DNA of 64,000 nt, from assembly GCA_040400915.1 (NCBI GenBank), contig JBBAPI010000006.1:704-64703 (forward strand). The letters are read 5' to 3'. The stretch's first letter is position 1, and every line of letters begins with the position of its first letter. Under the pieces are notes generated by a model. That model searched no databases. It was not told where the DNA came from and was given only the letters and a program-made list of their open reading frames with translations. A program made the translations under genes and the position numbers. The stretch is from Rubrivivax sp. (GTDB lineage Bacteria; Pseudomonadota; Gammaproteobacteria; Burkholderiales; Burkholderiaceae_C). Shown piece after piece: positions 52,483 to 62,200 of this stretch.

Positions 52483-53151
52483 TCAGGCCGTCAGCAGCCC
52501 CCGCTGCTCGATGAAGCGGATCACGGCGTCCAGGCCTTCGCGCGTGCGCAGGTTGGTCATCACGTAGGGCCGCTTGGCCTTGTCCCCGGCGTGGTCGGGC
52601 CGCATCCGCCGGGTGTCGGCTTCCATCACCTCCAGGCTGGCGCCCACATGGGGCGCGAGGTCGATCTTGTTGATCACCAGCAGGTCGCTCTTGGTGATGC
52701 CCGGGCCGCCCTTGCGCGGAATCTTCTCGCCGCCGGCCACGTCGATGACATACAGCGTCAGGTCGCTGAGTTCCGGGCTGAAGGTGGCCGCCAGGTTGTC
52801 GCCGCCGCTCTCGATGAAGACGATGTCGGCGTTGGGGAACTTCTCCAGCATCCGGTCCACCGCCTCGAGGTTGATCGAGGCGTCTTCGCGGATGGCGGTG
52901 TGCGGGCAGCCGCCCGTCTCGACGCCGACGATGCGCTCGGCGTCGAGCGCACCGGCCACGGTCAGCAGGCGCTGGTCTTCCTTGGTGTAGATGTCGTTGG
53001 TGACGACGACCAGGTCCCAGCGGTCGCGCAAGGTCTTGCAGAGCATCTCGACCAGGGTGGTCTTGCCCGAACCCACCGGGCCGCCCACGCCGACGCGCAG
53101 CGGGGGCAGTTTCTTGGTGCGGCCGACGATGTGGTGGAGGGGGCTGTTCAC
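52483..53151 (-). CDS. ureG: Urease accessory GTPase UreG
   Basis: [27 protein letters not shown] and NKID. Confidence 0.97.
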
Positions 53152-53205
53152 ACCGGGGATGATGCACGAAGCGTGCTCAGCCCCGGCTACAGCCCTGCAA
53201 GGCGG

Positions 53206-53793
53206 TCACTTTGAGGTGTAGCCGCGGGCGTCCATGCAGGCATCGACGGCGCGCATGAAGACCGAGGAATCGTTCAGCGCGGCAGGCTGCGTGGTCGCCC
53301 AGCGGTTGCACTCCTGGCGGTCGGCTTCCAGCTGTTGCGCCGACTGGCCGTTGCGCGGGTAGATCACCGGTTCAGGCCGGCTCGGCGCCGCCGCCGGCGC
53401 GGGCGCGGGCGGTGCCGCATACACCTGCGGCGGCTGCTCGACGATGACCGTGGTCGGGCCGGGGTAGACCCAGGGCGAGGCCAGCAGCAAGCCCGCGCCG
53501 AGGCCCACACCCACACCCCAGCCACAGCACCAGCCGCCGGGGTAGCCGCCGTAGTAACCGCCGTAGTAGCGACCGCTGCGGCCGCCGTAGCCGCCGCCAT
53601 GGCCACCGCGATAGCCGACGTTGACAACCCCGACGGGGCCGCCGGTGCGGTAGACGGCCGGGCTCAGCGTGAGCGGGGCGCCGGCGCTGACGGCTGCCGA
53701 TACGCCATCGGCATGCGCCGCAGCCGCGATAGCGGTCAACACGGCAACGACCGCGCCCCGACGAAGGGTCGTAGACAGTGAAACTTTCAGCAT
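53206..53793 (-). CDS. Hypothetical secreted Gly/Tyr/Pro-rich protein with a C-terminal two-Cys domain
   Basis: Signal peptide ending AHA, GGYYGGY repeats, PAPAPA linker, YPRNGQSAQQLEADRQEC..WA...ACMDARGY; GGAGG RBS. Confidence 0.75.
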   Translation of the reverse strand: MLKVSLSTTLRRGAVVAVLTAIAAAAHADGVSAAVSAGAPLTLSPAVYRTGGPVGVVNVGYRGGHGGGYGGRSGRYYGGYYGGYPGGWCCGWGVGVGLGAGLLLASPWVYPGPTTVIVEQPPQVYAAPPAPAPAAAPSRPEPVIYPRNGQSAQQLEADRQECNRWATTQPAALNDSSVFMRAVDACMDARGYTSK

Positions 53794-53941
53794 GGCAAGC
53801 ACCTCCGGCAATCAAGCCGCCATGATGCACCCGCGACCACCCGGCCGCTTGACGGGTCTGCAAAGTATCGTGAACGGTGGGTGACGCCGGTGTCAGACCG
53901 GCCGACGAAGACGGCTGGCCGGCCCGTGCCGGACCGGAGCT

Positions 53942-54649
53942 TCAGGACCGGAACAGCCGCGAATACTGGGTCTCGTGCTGGGCGCTCAGGATGGTCAGCA
54001 TCGGGCTGTGCGCCTGGCGTTCAGGCTCGGGCAGAACCAGCGCGCGTTCGACCGCCTCGGGTATCGCCGCCGCCAATCGGGCCAGGATGCGCTGCGCGGC
54101 CGACTGACCCAGCGGCACGGCCTTCATCGCCGCCTGCGCCATGTTTTCAGCCCAGCCCCAGGCGCAGGCCAGCAAGGCCCCGCGGGCGTCGCTGCCCGCC
54201 AGCACGGCCGCCAGCGCGAAGGCCATCGGCCACAGTGGTGCCGGTTGCAGGGCGGCCAGCGTGCCCAGGCGGGCGTCGGTGGCCTGCGGGCCATTGCGCA
54301 GCCATTCCAGCAGGCTGCGCCCCATCTGTTCGGACTGGGCGCGGAATTCGGCGCTTTCGCGGGTGCAGCGCAGCCAGTCGTTGAGTTCGGCCACGCGCGC
54401 TGCGTCCTGCGCCTGCCAGGCGGCGCAGGCCAGCGCCAGGGTCGGCAGGTCGGACCGGGCCAGCGTCAGCTCCAGCTGTGCCGTCAGCCAGTCGGCAGCC
54501 TGGGCTTCCGTGCTCACGCAGCCCGCCTCGACCGCCGCTTCCAGCCCCTCGGAATAACTGAAACCGCCCACCGGCAGGGCTGGCGAGGCCAGCCACATCA
54601 GCTGCAGCCGGGTGGCCGCTGTTTCAGTGTTCGTGGGGGCCGTGGTCAT
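53942..54649 (-). CDS. ureF: Urease accessory protein UreF
   Basis: [26 protein letters not shown] and [11 protein letters not shown]. Confidence 0.95.
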
Positions 54650-55283
54650 GACCGCAACCCGGGCCGTGCACATGGGGCGCGGCCTTCACGGCGATGCCCA
54701 GCGGCTTGCCGCGGGCCGGCACCGCCGCGGGCGCTGCGGCGCCGTGGCCGGCGGCGTGATCGGGTTCGGCCGCGGGCGCGTGGTCATGGCCGTGGTCCTG
54801 GCCTGCGCCATGCGCGTGCCCGACCGTGGCCGCTGCGTAGGCGCCCGACTCGGGTTCGAAGGCCGACTGTTCCTCGCTGACGATCAGGTGCATGGCGCGC
54901 AGCAGGTCGGCCAGCACGTGGTCGGGTTCCAGCAGCAGCCGGTCGGCTTGCAGTTCCAGCGGCACATGGCGGTTGCCCAGGTGGTAGGCGGCGCGCAGCA
55001 GGTCGAAAGCGCTGCCGTGCTCGGCGCAGGCGCGCACCACCAGCACGGGCTGCGGCGCGGCCAGCACGCGGATGATGGAACCGTCCTCGGCCACCAGCGC
55101 GTCACCGCCGCGCAGCACGCTGCCGCGCGGCAGGAAGATGCCCAGGGCGCGTCCGCCGCTGTCGGTGGCGTCGAGGCGGCTCTTCCGGCGTTCGTCCCAG
55201 CCCAGTTCGATGGTGGTGGCGCGCTTGAGCAGTGCGGTTGCGAGGCCCTGTGAGCGGGGCAGCAGTTTGTTGACGGTCAGCAT
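54624..55283 (-). CDS. ureE: Urease Ni-chaperone UreE with His-rich tail
   Basis: [26 protein letters not shown] and FEPESGAY, followed by a His-rich C-terminus. Confidence 0.95.
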
Positions 55284-55317
55284 GGGTGGATTGTCGCCTG
55301 GCGCTATGCGCGGGCCG

Positions 55318-55764
55318 TCAAGGCTTGGCGAAGTAGCGCACGCCGGGCAGGCCCTCGAAGTGGCTGTCCTGGGTCCAGAGTTCAGCATGGTGCAGTTGGG
55401 CGGTGGCGTAGATCAAGCTGTCGGCCAATGGCAGGCCGTTGACAGCGGCTGCCAGCGCCAGCGGCAAGTCGACAGACACCACTTGGCCGCGTTGCATCAG
55501 CGACAAAGCGGCGGCTGCCACCTCGTCACCCGCTTCACGCACCAGCTTCTTGGCCACTTCATAGACGGTGACGACAGGCACCACCAGGTGCTCGGGCTGC
55601 GCCAGCGCCTCGGCGTACAGGTCGGCCCGCGCGCTGTCGGTGAAGAATTCCAGCCAGCACGATGAGTCCAGTACGCGCAGGGTGGGCTGGGCGGCGGCCC
55701 TGGTCTTGGCCCTTGCCCGGGTCTGGGTGGGCGGCGCCATCGGCTTCGAGCCCGCCCCGGCCAT
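55318..55764 (-). CDS. vapC: VapC PIN-domain toxin (module 1)
   Basis: VLDSSCW, YEV, LADS and TQD acidic residues; TGATG coupling to the antitoxin. Confidence 0.9.
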   Translation of the reverse strand: MAGAGSKPMAPPTQTRARAKTRAAAQPTLRVLDSSCWLEFFTDSARADLYAEALAQPEHLVVPVVTVYEVAKKLVREAGDEVAAAALSLMQRGQVVSVDLPLALAAAVNGLPLADSLIYATAQLHHAELWTQDSHFEGLPGVRYFAKP

Positions 55765-55973
55765 CAGGCGATCCGATCGGCGTCGCGTGCGATGTCGGGG
55801 TTGATGCCCCGTGCGATGCCGCGCAATTCGGCTGCGCTGCGCAACGGCATCAGGCGCAGGCCGCCGTTGAAGTCCACCACCATCAACTTGGTGCCGGCCT
55901 GCAGCTTCAGCCGTTGGCGCACGGCCAGCGGGATGACGACCTGGAATTTCGGCGAAACGGTGACGGTGTCCAT
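55764..55973 (-). CDS. AbrB/MazE/SpoVT-family antitoxin (module 1)
   Basis: 69 aa; VTVSPKFQVVIPLAVRQRLKL.AG. Confidence 0.9.
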   Translation of the reverse strand: MDTVTVSPKFQVVIPLAVRQRLKLQAGTKLMVVDFNGGLRLMPLRSAAELRGIARGINPDIARDADRIA

Positions 55974-55974
55974 G

Positions 55975-56015
55975 TCGATCAATGTAGCGTATGCCGAGTA
56001 TTTGATCGATGTAAA
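55975..56015 (-). promoter_or_regulatory. Promoter/operator of TA module 1
   Basis: TTTACA(56015-56010)-N18-TACGCT(55991-55986) on -. Perfect 8-bp inverted repeat TCGATCAA(55975-82)/TTGATCGA(56002-09). Confidence 0.55.
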
Positions 56016-56028
56016 TTCGCTGGCCAAG

Positions 56029-57756
56029 CTAGAACAGGAAGTACTTCTGCGCCAGCGGCAGCACCGTCGCCGGCTCGCAGGTCAGCAACTGCCCGTCGGC
56101 CCGCACCTGGTAGGTCTGGGCGTCGATCTGCATCTTCGGCAGGTAGTCGTTCAGCACCATGTCGTGCTTCTTCACACTGCGGCAGCCGTGCACCACGCTC
56201 AGCCGCTTGCGCAGGCCCAAGGCATCCCCGATGTCGTTGTCCATCGCCGCCTTGCTCATGAAGGTCAGGCTGGTGGCCTGCACCAGGCGGCCGCAGCTGC
56301 CGAACATCGGCCGGTAGTGCACGGGTTGCGGTGTCGGGATGCTGGCGTTGGCGTCGCCCATCAGCGCCGCGGCAATGAAGCCGCCCTTCAGAATCAGGCT
56401 GGGCTTGACGCCGAAGAAGGCCGGGCGCCACAGCACCAGGTCGGCCCACTTGCCGACTTCGATGCTGCCCACGTCGTGCGAAATGCCGTTCGCGATCGCC
56501 GGGTTGATCGTGTACTTGGCGATGTAGCGCTTGACCCGGTTGTTGTCGTTGCGCTCAGAGTCACCGGCCAGCGCGCCACGCTGCGCCTTCATCTTGTGCG
56601 CCGTCTGCCAGGTGCGGATGATGACTTCGCCGACGCGGCCCATGGCCTGGCTGTCGCTGGACATCATGCTGATCGCGCCCAGGTCGTGCAGCACGTCTTC
56701 GGCGGCGATGGTTTCCCGGCGGATGCGGCTTTCGGCAAAGGCCAGGTCTTCGGCGATGGACGGGTCGAGGTGGTGGCAGACCATCAGCATGTCCAGGTGC
56801 TCGTCCACCGTGTTGGCGGTGTAGGGCATGGTCGGGTTGGTGCTGCTGGGCAGGAAATTGGCCTCGCCGACGACGCGCAGGATGTCCGGCGCGTGGCCGC
56901 CGCCGGCGCCTTCGGTGTGGAAGGCGCACAGGGTGCGCCCGCCGGTGGCGGCCACCGTGTCTTCGACGAAGCCGCTTTCGTTCAGCGTGTCGCTGTGGAT
57001 GCTGACCTGGGTGTCGGTGGCCTCGGCCACGTCCAGGCAGTTGCTGATGGCCGCCGGCGTGGTGCCCCAGTCTTCGTGCAGCTTCAGGCCGATGGCGCCA
57101 GCGGCGATCTGCTGGCTGAGCGCCGCGGCCTGCGTGGCGTTGCCCTTGCCCAGGAAGCCCAGGTTCATCGGGAAGGCCTCGGCCGCCTGCAGCATGCGGT
57201 GGATGTTCTCGGGGCCGGGCGTGCAGGTGGTGGCGAAGGTGCCGGTGGCCGGGCCGGTGCCGCCGCCCAGCATGGTGGTCACGCCGCTCATCAACGCTTC
57301 TTCGATCTGCTGCGGGCAGATGAAGTGGATGTGGCTGTCGATGCCGCCGGCGGTCAGGATCATCCCCTCGCCGGCAATGATCTCGGTGCCTGGGCCGATG
57401 ACGATGTCCACCCCCGGCTGCACGTCGGGGTTGCCGGCCTTGCCGATGGCCGCAATGCGGCAGCCCTTGAGGCCGACATCGGCCTTGACGATGCCCCAGG
57501 TGTCGATGATCAGCGCGTTGGCGATGACGCAGTCGGCGGCCTCGGCGTGGCCGGGGCCGTTGACAACCTGGCTCTGGCCCATGCCGTCGCGGATGGTCTT
57601 GCCGCCGCCGAATTTCACTTCCTCGCCGTAGCCGCCCGCGGCCAGCGTGTGGTCCTTTTCGACCTCGACGATCAGGCCCGTGTCGGCCAGGCGCAGGCGG
57701 TCGCCGGCCGTGGGGCCGAACATCTCGGCGTAGGCGCGTTTTCCGATCAGGGCCAT
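56029..57756 (-). CDS. ureC: Urease alpha subunit
   Basis: [44 protein letters not shown] and SSDSQAMGR. Confidence 0.99.
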
Positions 57757-58061
57757 CACAGTGCTCCGTTCACCAGACCGCGGAAGCCCCAGACCTGGCG
57801 CAAGCCGGCGTAGGCCACCAATTCGACGGTGCGTTGCTGCCCCGGCTCGAAGCGCACCGCGGTGCCGCTGGCGATGTTCAGGCGCATGCCCTTGGCGGCT
57901 TCGCGGTCGAAGCGCAGGGCCGCATTGGTTTCGGCGAAGTGGTAATGCGAACCCACCTGTATCGGGCGATCGCCGGTGTTGGCCACCACCACCGTGGCGG
58001 TGGCGCGGCTGGGGTTCAAGGTGTGGAAGCCGTCGTCGATCAGCAGTTCGCCGGGTGTCAT
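57756..58061 (-). CDS. ureB: Urease beta subunit
   Basis: [15 protein letters not shown] and GTAVRFEPG. Confidence 0.98.
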
Positions 58062-58087
58062 CGTGTGGTGTCCTTGGGTTCTTGAAA

Positions 58088-58513
58088 TCAGTTCATGGGC
58101 CAGGCTGACAGTGGCTGCAGCCGGCCCAGCGCTGCGGCCTTGCGGCAATAGGCTTCGTCGGCGGTGACCAGCACGGCGTCTTCGGTTTCCAGCGCCAGCG
58201 CGTGGTACAGCGTGTCGAACAGGTGGTGGTTCAGCTGCTGGCTGAGCTGCATGGCGCGCCAATAGACCCGGTCATCGTCCCGCGAACGCAGGCCCAAGGC
58301 GCGCAAATTCGCCAGGTGCCGTTCCATCCGATCCGGTGTCTCGCGCGCCAGCACGGCGCACACCTCGGCCTGGAAGTGCGGCGGTTGCAGCAACTGGTGT
58401 CGGCCGTCGACATGGCCCTGCAGGATGTCCAGCGCGGCGGCGCCATCGTCTTCGCCGGAGCGTTCATGAAAGAACCACTTCAGAGCGACGCTGGCGTCGA
58501 CCACCAGCTTCAC
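58088..58513 (-). CDS. vapC: VapC PIN-domain toxin (module 2)
   Basis: [23 protein letters not shown] and VTAD; GTG start overlaps the antitoxin stop. Confidence 0.88.
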
Positions 58514-58743
58514 GGACGCCCAGCCCGGCGCGCAGCGGCCAGTTGTCTCGAACTGCGGACCGGCGCCGTGCTGCGCATGTCCAGGATGCTGGCCAGGGCG
58601 GCCTCGCGCAGGCGCTGCTCCTGCGCCAGCGCGATGGCCGTGCGCAACAGTTGCGTCAATACCGCGCTCTTGTTCTGGCCCTCGAAGGTGGCGTTGAACG
58701 CTTGTTTCACATCCTCGGGGACACTGAAATTCATCGTGGCCAT
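58510..58743 (-). CDS. Ribbon-helix-helix type antitoxin (module 2)
   Basis: 77 aa; MATMNFSVPEDVKQAF...NKSAVLTQLL; directly upstream of the PIN gene. Confidence 0.8.
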   Translation of the reverse strand: MATMNFSVPEDVKQAFNATFEGQNKSAVLTQLLRTAIALAQEQRLREAALASILDMRSTAPVRSSRQLAAARRAGRP

Positions 58744-58755
58744 GTCACGACCCCA

Positions 58756-58801
58756 TTGTTGAAGAGTTCAACAACTTAGCCGATGCGTCCGACGCCGTCA
58801 A
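58756..58801 (-). promoter_or_regulatory. sigma70 promoter and perfect operator of TA module 2
   Basis: TTGACG(58801-58796)-N17-TAAGTT(58778-58773) on -. Palindrome TTGTTGAA-N3-TTCAACAA at 58756-58774. Confidence 0.75.
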
Positions 58802-58812
58802 GGCAGCCGGTT

Positions 58813-59115
58813 TCAGGTGATGGGTTGGTGCACGGTCACCAGTTTGGTGCCATCGGGGAAGGTGGCTTCGACCTGGATTTCGCTGACGATTTCCGGCACG
58901 CCGTCCATCACGTCGTCGCGGCCCAGGACGGTTTTGCCGTCGCTCATCAACTGGGCCACGGTCTTGCCGTCGCGGGCCCCTTCCAGGATGCCGCAGCTGA
59001 TGAAGGCGATGGCCTCGGGCACGTTCAGCTTCAAGCCGCGCGCCCGTCGGCGTTCGGCCAGCAGGCCGGCAGTGAAGAGCAGCAGTTTGTCTTTTTCGCG
59101 GGGTGTCAGGTCCAT
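58813..59115 (-). CDS. ureA: Urease gamma subunit
   Basis: [12 protein letters not shown]...RGLKLN.PEA...[14 protein letters not shown]. Confidence 0.99.
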
Positions 59116-59201
59116 GCTGGGGGCTCATTCACGTCGGGTGCCAGCATCCTAACCGTCGACCCTGGGCCGGTGGCGCAGTCCGTGCATCATCGCCACCCAG
59201 C

Positions 59202-62200
59202 ATGAGTGCCTTGCCCCTTTCGGCCCCAGCATCGAGCGACGCCCCGCCGGCGCCGCAGCAGCGCGTCATCAAGGTCCGCCGCGACTACAACGCCTGGGTC
59301 GCCAGCGAGAGCCTGGAAGACTACGCGCTGCGCTTCACGCCGCGCAGCTTCCGCAAGTGGAGCACTTGGCGTGTGGCCAACACCGCCATCGGCGGGGCGG
59401 CCTCCTTTCTGGTTCTGGAAGCCGTGGGCGCCACGCTGCTGCTGCAGTTCGGTTTCATCAACGCCTTCTGGGCCGTTCTGGCCACCGCGCTGATCATCTT
59501 CGCCGCCGGCCTGCCGATCAGCGTCTACGCCGCGCGCCACGGGCTGGACATGGACCTGCTGACGCGCGGCGCCGGCTTCGGCTACATCGGCAGCACCATC
59601 ACCAGCCTGATCTACGCCAGCTTCACCTTCATCTTTTTCGCGCTGGAAGCGGCCATCATGGCCTACGCGCTGGAACTGGCCTGGGGCATCCCGCCGACCT
59701 GGGGCTACCTGCTGTGCGCGCTGGTGGTCATCCCGCTGGTCACCCACGGCGTCACGGCCATCAGCCAGCTGCAGGTGTGGACGCAGCCGCTGTGGCTGGC
59801 GCTGCTGGTGTTGCCCTACGGCTACGTCTTCCAGGCGCATCCGGGCTTGGTCGGCGAACTGCGCGTCTACGCCGGTGCAAGCGGGCAGGGTGGTGGCTTC
59901 AACCCGCTGCTCTTCGGCGGCGCGCTGACGGTGGGCATCGCGCTGATCACGCAGATGGGTGAGCAGGCCGACTACCTGCGCTTCATGCCCGAGAAGACCG
60001 TGGCCACGCGCGGCCGCTGGTGGCTGGGCGTGTTGATCGGCGGCCCCGGCTGGGTCATCCCCGGCGTGTTGAAGATGCTGGGCGGCATGCTGCTGGCCTA
60101 CCTGGCGCTGACGCTGGCCGTGCCGGCCGACCGCGCGGTCGACCCCAACCAGATGTACCTGGCGGCCTACGAACTGGTCTTTCCGCACTACACCTGGGCG
60201 GTGGCGGCCACGGCTTTGCTGGTCATCGTCAGCCAGCTGAAGATCAACGTGACCAACGCCTACGCCGGCAGCCTGGCCTGGTCGAACTTCTTCGCCCGCG
60301 TCACGCACAGCCACCCCGGCCGCGTCGTCTGGGTGGTGTTCAACACCCTGATCGCGCTGATGCTGATGGAGCTGGAGGTCTTCAAGGCCATCGCCGGCGT
60401 GCTGGGCCTGTACAGCAACATCGCCATCAGCTGGATCATGGCCGTGGTGGCCGATCTGGTGGTCAACAAGCCGCTGGGCTGGTCGCCCAAGGGCATCGAA
60501 TTCAAGCGGGCGCACCTCTACGACATCAACCCGGTGGGCGTGGGTGCCATGGGCTTGGCTTCGGTGCTGTCCATTGCGGCCTACCTGGGCGTCTTCGGCG
60601 CGATGGCGCAGGCCTTCTCGGCGGTGATCGCGATGGCGGTGGCCTTCGTCACGTCGCCGCTGATCGCCTGGGCGACCCAGGGCCGCTACTACATCGCCAG
60701 AACATCCGTTGACCCCAAGGCCGCCGCAAGCGGCGACCGTCCCCCGAGGGGAGCGATGCATCCTTGGGGCGGCCCGGCGGATGCATCCGACGACGGCGCC
60801 TACCTGGGCGCGACCAGCGGCGTGCTGAAGCTGCGCCGCTGCGTGATCTGCGAGCGCGACTACGAAGGCGAAGACATGGCGCAGTGCCCGGCCTACGGCG
60901 GGCCGATCTGCAGCCTGTGCTGCGCGCTGGACGCCCGCTGCCACGACCTGTGCAAGCCCGAACCCGCGCGCGCGCCGTGGCAGCTGACGGCGCTGCTGCG
61001 CCGCCTGACGCCACGCGCCTGGTGGCCGCAGCTGGACACGGGGCTGGGCCGCTACCTGCTGCTGATGGCCGTCGTGGCGCCCGCGCTGGCCGGTCTGCTG
61101 AGCCTGCTCTACCAGGCCGAACTGCGCCACCTGGGCGATGCGGCCGGGGCGCTGGCCCCGGCACTGCGCGCCGGCTTCATCAAGGCCTGGTGCGGGCTGG
61201 TGCTGGTGGCCGGGGTGATCGGCTGGTGGGGGGTCCTGACGCAGATCAGCCGCCGCGTGGCGCAGGAGGAAAGCAACCGCCAGACCCAAGCCCTGATGCG
61301 CGAGATCGATGCCCACCACCGGACGGACGAAGCCCTGCAGCGCGCCAAGCAGGCTTCGGAGGCCGCCAACCAGGCCAAGACGCGCTACATCAGCGCCGTC
61401 AGCCACGAACTGCGCACACCGCTGAACAGCATCCTGGGCTATGCGCAACTGCTCGACGAAGACCCGACCTTGCCGGTGCACCGCAAGCAGGCGGTGGGCG
61501 TGATCCGGCGCGGCGGCGAACACCTGCTGAGCCTGATCGAAGGCACGCTGGACATCGCGCGCATCGAAGGCGGCAAGCTGGCGCTGGAGCCCAAGCCGAT
61601 GCGCCTGCACGAGGCGCTGCGCCAGATCGTGCAGATGTTCGAGCTGCAGGCGGCCAGCAAGGGCCTGCGCTTCGAGCACCACATCGAGGGCGCGCCCGCG
61701 CTGGTCAAGGCCGACGAGCGGCGGTTGACGCAGATCCTGATCAACGTGCTGGGCAATGCCGTCAAGTTCACGCCGGCCGGCCGCGTCAGCTTCCGCGCCC
61801 TGCCTGTGCGTGGCATGACCGTGTTCGAGATCGAGGACACCGGGCCGGGCATCGCCGCGCAGGACCTGGAACGCATCTTCGAACCCTTCTCGCGCGGCGG
61901 TGCTGCGGCCGGTGCGCCGAGTGGTGGCACGGGACTGGGCCTGACCATCGCCAAGATGCTGACCGACCTGATGGGCGGCGAGATGACGGTGTCGTCGCGC
62001 ACCGCGGCCGAGGGCGTCGGCATGTCCGGCACCTTGTTCCGCGTGCGCCTCTTCCTGCCCGAACTGCAAGGTGCAAGAGCCCCGCAGCCCTTGCCCTTGC
62101 GTGCCGGCTACGCGGGCGCGCGGCGCCGTGTGCTGGTGGTGGACAACGAAGAAATCGACCGCACGCTGCTGGCCGCCCGGCTGCAGGCTGTCGGCTTCGA

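Follow-up and report, generated by a model that had tools for sequence, protein, structure and literature searches.

A probable autoregulated promoter and operator of a type II toxin–antitoxin pair inside a urease operon of Rubrivivax sp.

Introduction

In a Rubrivivax urease operon, a pair of toxin–antitoxin (TA) genes lies between ureA and ureB, and the sequence preceding the pair (58756-58801) combines promoter-like hexamers with a perfect palindrome. The question raised by this locus is what such a promoter serves, the TA pair itself or the urease genes that follow it; an earlier note on this DNA had favoured the latter, describing a promoter placed to drive ureB-ureC. The window, by which we mean the whole stretch of 64,000 nucleotides that was analysed, comes from a freshwater metagenome-assembled genome of 4.58 Mb, and the organism is known only from DNA metagenomes.

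Organisation and assembly support of the locus

The genes were found on the minus strand in the order ureA, a 69-nt spacer, antitoxin, vapC, a 26-nt spacer, ureB, ureC, a second TA pair, ureE and ureF. The antitoxin/vapC pair at the ureA-ureB junction is referred to below as TA2, and the second pair, between ureC and ureE, as TA1. From its promoter through the vapC stop, the TA2 unit occupies about 0.74 kb within the ureA-ureB junction. The features of this region are:

59115-58813, minus strand: ureA, urease gamma subunit of 100 aa (Pfam Urease_gamma, E=4e-46)
58801-58796, minus strand: -35 hexamer TTGACG, matching TTGACA at 5/6 positions and beginning after 11 nt past the ureA stop
58795-58779, minus strand: spacer of 17 nt between the -35 and -10 hexamers
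58778-58773, minus strand: -10 hexamer TAAGTT, matching TATAAT at 3/6 positions (T1, A2, T6)
58774-58756: candidate operator, a perfect palindrome of 19 bp, TTGTTGAA-CTC-TTCAACAA, overlapping the last 2 nt of the -10 hexamer and the predicted +1
58768-58765, minus strand: predicted transcription start, inferred from the position of the -10 hexamer and giving a 5' UTR of ~22-25 nt
58743-58510, minus strand: antitoxin gene, 77 aa, predicted ribbon-helix-helix protein with the N-terminus MATMNFSVPEDVK
58513-58088, minus strand: VapC-type PIN toxin gene, 141 aa (Pfam PF01850, PIN, E=1.7e-9)
58087-58062, minus strand: vapC-ureB spacer of 26 nt, with the ureB Shine-Dalgarno sequence AAGGA at 58075-58071 and no terminator
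58061-57756, minus strand: ureB (NCBIfam urease beta, E=7e-48), with its ATG at 58061
57759-56029, minus strand: ureC (Pfam Urease_alpha and Amidohydro_1)
56027-55318, minus strand: TA1, an AbrB/MazE-type antitoxin and a PIN toxin unrelated to TA2, between ureC and ureE

The same ureA-TA-ureB layout was identified in six further loci. One of these, on the JGI contig L114, is related to the window at strain level; in the others the identity of VapC to that of the window was 88% (L112), 74% (L005/L006), 75% (L007), 75% (L008) and 72% (L110). An assembly artefact was ruled out as the source of the TA2 gene order, the junctions being bridged by independent contigs. A contig from the source sample matched exactly over 57583-59343, and a contig of 2206 bp from an independent study (run X4) covered 57256-59398 without gaps and with 51 differences (~2.4% divergence). 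In L114, the ureA-antitoxin spacer was nearly base-for-base the same as in the window. TA2 was intact in all contigs of related strains, among which no allele without it was seen.

TA1 is polymorphic among related strains, a kind of variation not seen for TA2 at the ureA-ureB junction. In one X4 contig, position 55295 was joined to 56031 via 33 other letters, leaving TA1 absent and ureE directly after ureC, and contigs from X4 and X7 skipped 55665-55984, an internal deletion of TA1 that fuses antitoxin to toxin. TA1 is also missing from L005. An 11-bp repeat, GCCTTGACGGC, was considered as a target-site duplication and rejected, as the repeat includes the -35 hexamer; the same 11-mer occurs within the conserved promoter of L005, a locus without TA1.

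Upstream of ureA, the earlier note had reported a -10-like TAGGAT with no recognisable -35 hexamer. This was verified: TAGGAT occupies 59151-59146, and nothing resembling TTGACA lies 16-18 nt ahead of it. The region upstream of ureA also contains the motif TGGCAC-N5-GTGAA (59143-59128, minus strand), which is conserved in relatives, being identical in L114 and reading GTGCA instead of GTGAA in L005, L008 and L112. The motif resembles a sigma-54 -24/-12 element or, alternatively, a GCAC-N5-GTGC palindrome, and the genome contains rpoN. A sigma-54 promoter at this position would, oddly, have its start just 2-3 nt ahead of the ureA ATG, and the window has GA in place of the critical -12 GC. Within ureC, the Rfam model 5_ureB_sRNA (RF02514, 111 bits) matched 57297-57595 on the plus strand, antisense to the gene. 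The family describes an RNA antisense to the large-subunit gene of Helicobacter, and the match here is most likely due to the conservation of urease coding sequence and not to an sRNA.

The toxin–antitoxin pair

The TA2 toxin scored 38.7 bits against the PIN model (cut-off 23.6), with D6, E50 and D100 invariant and D119 at least 90% conserved. It did not reach the threshold of the NCBIfam VapC equivalog, and a toxin profile gave no matches by sequence in the PDB. The stop codon of the antitoxin gene and the GTG start of vapC overlap as GTGA, and the same gene order and overlap were present in 73 family loci. With a coupled antitoxin gene located upstream of a PIN toxin gene encoding conserved acidic residues, TA2 has the features of a type II TA system of the VapBC type. 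Toxin homologues numbered 2983 at E<1e-5. A search of plasmids returned no VapC homologues at E<=1e-10, and neither TA1 nor TA2 was matched by the defence-system models of PADLOC. In a crude ORF scan, vapC of L015, L016, L020, L026, L042 and L060 was followed by a co-oriented ORF (168-825 aa) whose start lies 4 nt ahead of the vapC stop, an ATGA-type overlap that hints at frequent operon fusion or a third partner.

Almost all antitoxins of the family are 77 aa long, and they share the pattern MATVNFSVP[DE][DE]VK..FN..F.GQNKSAVIA.LMREAVE. Residues T3, N5 and S7 were invariant across the family alignment, an alternation expected where a ribbon-helix-helix beta-strand faces the DNA. An AlphaFold2 monomer model of the antitoxin (pLDDT 88) comprised an extended segment at residues 1-9 and helices at 10-19, 25-59 and 65-74. 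Searches of the window antitoxin against Pfam, NCBIfam and, by sequence, the PDB returned no matches. Sub-threshold matches to RHH_1, CcdA, RHH_5 and PSK_trans_fac were obtained for 2-8 of 49 family members (for Pfam RHH_1 seven, the window antitoxin not being among them). The top Foldseek matches of the model were the ribbon-helix-helix antitoxins AtaR and FitA, at E>1. The ribbon-helix-helix label that the earlier note had given this protein agrees with the model and with the T3/N5/S7 pattern but has no match at family thresholds behind it; we consider that the antitoxin probably belongs to this class. The antitoxin gene had dN/dS values of 0.06-0.25 and the toxin gene values of 0.19-0.38, indicating that both TA2 genes are under purifying selection.

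The probable promoter

The arrangement TTGACG-N17-TAAGTT was present as described in the earlier note, but its designation as near-consensus was overstated, the two hexamers agreeing with the consensus at 8/12 positions overall. A sigma-70 consensus scan of 53000-60000, which required at least 4/6 matches in each hexamer and at least 9/12 in total, called no sites. The promoter was missed because of its 8/12 score, TAAGTT agreeing with TATAAT only at T1, A2 and T6. Sites with a -35 hexamer of at least 5/6, a TAnnnT -10 hexamer and a spacer of 16-18 nt occurred three times in the window, compared with 1.7 +/- 1.3 expected, and on the hexamers alone the site is not beyond chance frequency in the window. 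Two of these three sites directly precede the two antitoxin genes, those of TA2 and TA1. The one at TA1, TTTACA-N18-TACGCT (56015-55990, minus strand), is the only other minus-strand site of that quality in the window, and its position directly upstream of the TA1 antitoxin suggests that TA1 probably has its own promoter too.

Comparison with homologous loci revealed that TTGAC was invariant in the window and in the urease-embedded loci L114, L112, L005, L008, L007 and L110, and equally in L113 and L009. The -10 hexamer in the orthologues read TAAGTT, TAGCTT or TATCTT, at unchanged spacing. In the urease-embedded loci TTGAC, the 17-nt spacing, TAnnTT and both palindrome arms were invariant and most positions in the spacer, the loop and the 5' UTR varied. 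This phylogenetic footprint provides the strongest argument here for a real promoter. Across the wider family, the -35/-10 pair abutting the palindrome had a mean best score of 8.4/12, compared with 6.1 in shuffled upstream sequence. Its commonest form was TTGACn-N17-(C/T)A(C/T)AAT, and the -10 hexamer ended anywhere from 4 nt inside the palindrome to 6 nt before it. This conservation makes it very probable that both promoter and operator are genuine. Fewer than 10% of the sampled words were found in RNA runs, where coverage consisted of conserved ureA/ureB pieces of other organisms and was zero on TA2.

The probable palindromic operator

The earlier note had placed a perfect palindrome over the end of the -10 hexamer and the predicted start, and this was confirmed at 58774-58756. 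The palindrome consists of two arms of 8 bp each, with centres 11 bp apart; it lies 39-57 nt past the ureA stop, with 12 nt between it and the antitoxin ATG (58743). Allowing up to two mismatches, it matched the window once, compared with 0.00 matches expected from 100 shuffles. The 4.58-Mb genome contains a single perfect copy, the one at this site, and the lack of a second copy suggests that the antitoxin has no wider regulon.

Scanning one genome per species for homologues of the toxin yielded 80 loci from Beta-, Gamma- and Alphaproteobacteria, a 'Deltaproteobacteria' MAG, Acidobacteriota, Nitrospirota and Chloroflexota (at least four phyla). The pattern TTGTTGAA-N3-TTCAACAA was present with up to two mismatches in 71 of these 80 loci and perfect in 45, always on the antitoxin side and 0-23 nt ahead of the antitoxin start, with the 3-nt loop free to vary. 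Deviations in one arm were uncompensated in the opposite arm in 28 of 29 cases (28:1), which argues for a protein-binding DNA site and not an RNA hairpin. The palindrome can be folded as RNA into a hairpin of 7-9 bp (z-score -1.1). An RNA hairpin or terminator was rejected as an explanation of the palindrome on the basis of the uncompensated arm changes, the absence of a T-run and this z-score. The site has the sequence properties expected of an autoregulated TA promoter-operator, namely a palindrome over the -10 hexamer and start, upstream of the antitoxin gene and conserved as DNA.

Genomic contexts and history of the insertion

The same promoter and operator were also identified outside urease operons, in L113 (VapC 73% identical), beside a DciA-like gene, in L009 from Methylibium sp. 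NZG (64%), between an inositol-phosphatase gene and mutS, and with close homologues in two same-genus genomes, beside an AmpG-like permease. Samples of 60 relatives and 400 same-family genomes contained no other urease-embedded pair; the only close homologue in those samples was a 64% match from another genus, probably the non-urease Methylibium locus. A metagenome pattern scan for the end of ureA plus the palindrome yielded one extra locus, related at strain level only. The earlier proposal that the promoter is placed to drive ureB-ureC is left unsupported, without being refuted, as promoter and operator accompany the TA pair from one context to another and urease genes adjoin it in none of the 80 species-representative loci.

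In L008 (626-1760), ureA lacks 10 aa through an in-frame deletion, ureB breaks off after 38 codons and ureC is absent downstream; the TA genes and the promoter-operator beside these decayed genes are intact. L008 is a single metagenomic contig and possibly chimeric. The presence of the promoter in non-urease contexts and its integrity in the decayed L008 indicate that it belongs to the TA2 pair.

In L005, UreB and UreC were 94-95% identical to those of the window (UreC 95%) and the antitoxin 86%; the corresponding values in L007 were 80% and 86% for UreB and UreC and 81% for the antitoxin. The dS of the TA2 genes was similar to that of ureA, the divergence within the embedded layout amounting to dS ~0.5-1. 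Together with purifying selection, this similarity suggests that TA2 has co-diverged in place with the urease genes. In same-genus relatives (L094-L109) the ureA-ureB gap took three forms. Gaps of 10-13 bp were one, gaps of 194-347 bp encoded a small His-rich membrane protein with the motif HxGHGxPGxxHWHATD, and those of 606-715 bp encoded a longer membrane protein that is HupE/UreJ-like by eye. These three forms point to the ureA-ureB junction as a recurrent slot for inserted genes.

Discussion

On the evidence of sequence and its conservation, we propose that 58756-58801 is probably an autoregulated sigma-70-type promoter with the operator of a type II TA pair, and that read-through into urease is a likely by-product. 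In the proposed mechanism the antitoxin, alone or complexed with toxin, would bind the 19-bp palindrome, the 8-bp arms of which, about one helical turn apart, would suit two dimers on one DNA face. As the palindrome spans the end of the -10 hexamer and the start site, such binding would shut the promoter, and loss of antitoxin or excess of toxin would reopen it. Transcripts from the ureA promoter would include the TA2 genes, and those from the TA2 promoter would extend into ureB-ureC, providing a low, self-limited and ureA-independent input. The gap of 26 nt between vapC and ureB given in the earlier note was verified in the sequence, and the scan for terminators (hairpin plus T-run) was negative there as well as between ureA and TA2. 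The absence of terminators makes read-through from TA2 into ureBC likely. The vapC-ureB gap had an RNA fold z-score of +0.30, and its motif CCCAAGGACAC is kept in L005 and L112. A crude scan of 64 family loci found a terminator-like site after vapC in one and a co-oriented ORF close behind in 21. The input into ureBC is most likely a side effect of where TA2 landed, not purpose-built urease control; the promoter may have been retained because the antitoxin has to be supplied continuously, also at times when the conditional promoter of ureA is silent.

A more far-reaching interpretation, along the lines of the earlier note, is that the TA2 promoter was co-opted as a stress-released promoter for ureB-ureC and the accessory genes, so that full urease would need both inputs. 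We regard this as improbable. It would be favoured by the short, terminator-free passage from vapC to ureB and by the maintenance of embedded layout and promoter in at least six lineages at dS ~0.5-1, which could reflect a selected urease role rather than mere persistence, and the precedent of mazEF-sigB (PMC5308263) makes such a model possible. However, promoter and operator occur family-wide in non-urease contexts, TA2 and its promoter outlast the decay of urease in L008, and by the crude scan a vapC without a terminator is the family norm. The need of TA2 for an antitoxin supply independent of ureA suffices to explain why the promoter was kept, surplus ureBC without ureA cannot alone raise a 1:1:1 enzyme, and the genome offers no other copy of the operator. 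Equally doubtful is the broader idea that the state of TA2 gates a nitrogen-scavenging urease through a stress-released internal promoter, possibly with a roadblock, uncoupling ureBC from ureA; if true, such gating would explain the persistence of the embedded layout across several lineages. The roadblock itself, in which repressor on the operator would stop RNA polymerase that had started at the ureA promoter, leaving ureBC uncoupled from ureA and gated by TA2, appears very unlikely. DNA-bound repressors act as roadblocks in other systems, and the operator does sit inside the ureA-to-ureB transcription unit, but with TA2 in its usual repressed condition a strong block would cut off the supply of UreB and UreC and render the operon non-functional, which fits poorly with the good conservation of both proteins in the embedded lineages.

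At the opposite extreme, the hexamers might be a chance occurrence; TA2 would then depend entirely on read-through from ureA for its expression, and the palindrome would act as an mRNA hairpin that governs stability or translation. The 8/12 score that left the site uncalled by the scan and the predicted 7-9-bp fold are in line with this. Nevertheless, it is extremely unlikely given that uncompensated deviations outnumber compensated ones 28:1, the opposite of the signature of an RNA structure, and that the -35 and -10 hexamers and their 17-nt spacing are conserved amid varying neighbouring bases. Moreover, the non-urease contexts offer no upstream operon as a source of read-through, and transcripts beginning at the predicted +1 would contain just half of the hairpin. 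Compatible with the promoter-operator reading that we prefer is a further possibility, rather unlikely in our estimation, that TA2 is kept by penalising loss of the urease cluster or of itself, in which case the promoter would matter only for addiction. Chromosomal TA loci reduce large deletions. No related strain seen lacked TA2 or had a damaged copy of it, the pair survives in the decayed urease locus L008, and a second, unrelated pair, TA1, lies between ureC and ureE. Against this, TA1 is itself polymorphic among strains and no link to plasmids or mobile elements was found, and the loss of urease around an intact TA2 in L008 implies that any protection of neighbours is weak at best.

The proposed self-control of TA2 resembles that of FitAB from Neisseria gonorrhoeae, which consists of a small ribbon-helix-helix-type antitoxin, FitA, and a PIN toxin, FitB (PDB 2BSQ, on DNA). 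FitA reads DNA with an N-terminal ribbon and binds the toxin with a C-terminal helix, an organisation to which we liken that predicted for the TA2 antitoxin. As a complex, FitAB represses its own promoter, where it binds inverted repeats of 8 bp; for TA2 the corresponding binding is inferred. There is no significant sequence or fold-search similarity between the two systems (Foldseek E>1), and the operator sequences are unrelated. The arms of the FitAB operator are ~12-14 bp apart, whereas those of TA2 are 3 bp apart. The geometry of the TA2 operator is similar to that of Arc/CopG-type ribbon-helix-helix repressors, which use symmetric operators of 19-21 bp overlapping promoter hexamers, with half-sites about one helical turn apart that are read by alternating residues of the beta-ribbon; in TA2 the candidates for such residues are T3, N5 and S7. 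Unlike the TA2 protein, Arc and CopG are free-standing repressors, not antitoxins.

Inserts in the same ureA-ureB slot include a putative ureJ/hupE-type nickel permease or a small His-rich membrane ORF. These membrane proteins are plausibly nickel-related and have no recognisable promoter or operator of their own, whereas TA2 brings its own. In Staphylococcus aureus, the mazEF promoter is co-oriented upstream of the sigB operon and its transcripts run into that operon, acting as a conditional extra promoter (PMC5308263). The mazEF genes are located at the head of an operon, whereas TA2 lies between two subunit genes of one enzyme; furthermore, read-through from mazEF has been shown experimentally and that from TA2 is predicted, and the toxin and antitoxin families differ. 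A literature search returned no publication that deals with TA pairs within urease operons or with this operator sequence.

The promoter is probably an ordinary example of type II TA self-control in an unusual and conserved location. The VapC family is large and its 77-aa antitoxin uncharacterised, and the 19-bp operator is near-invariant from Betaproteobacteria to Nitrospirota and Chloroflexota. A near-invariant operator and its antitoxin form a testable protein-DNA recognition pair, with cross-regulation between copies being possible. A presumably self-repressed promoter between two subunit genes also constitutes a natural test case for the effects of TA pairs on their neighbours, and provides a clonable system in which to ask whether chromosomal TA pairs alter the expression of neighbouring genes or are merely tolerated.
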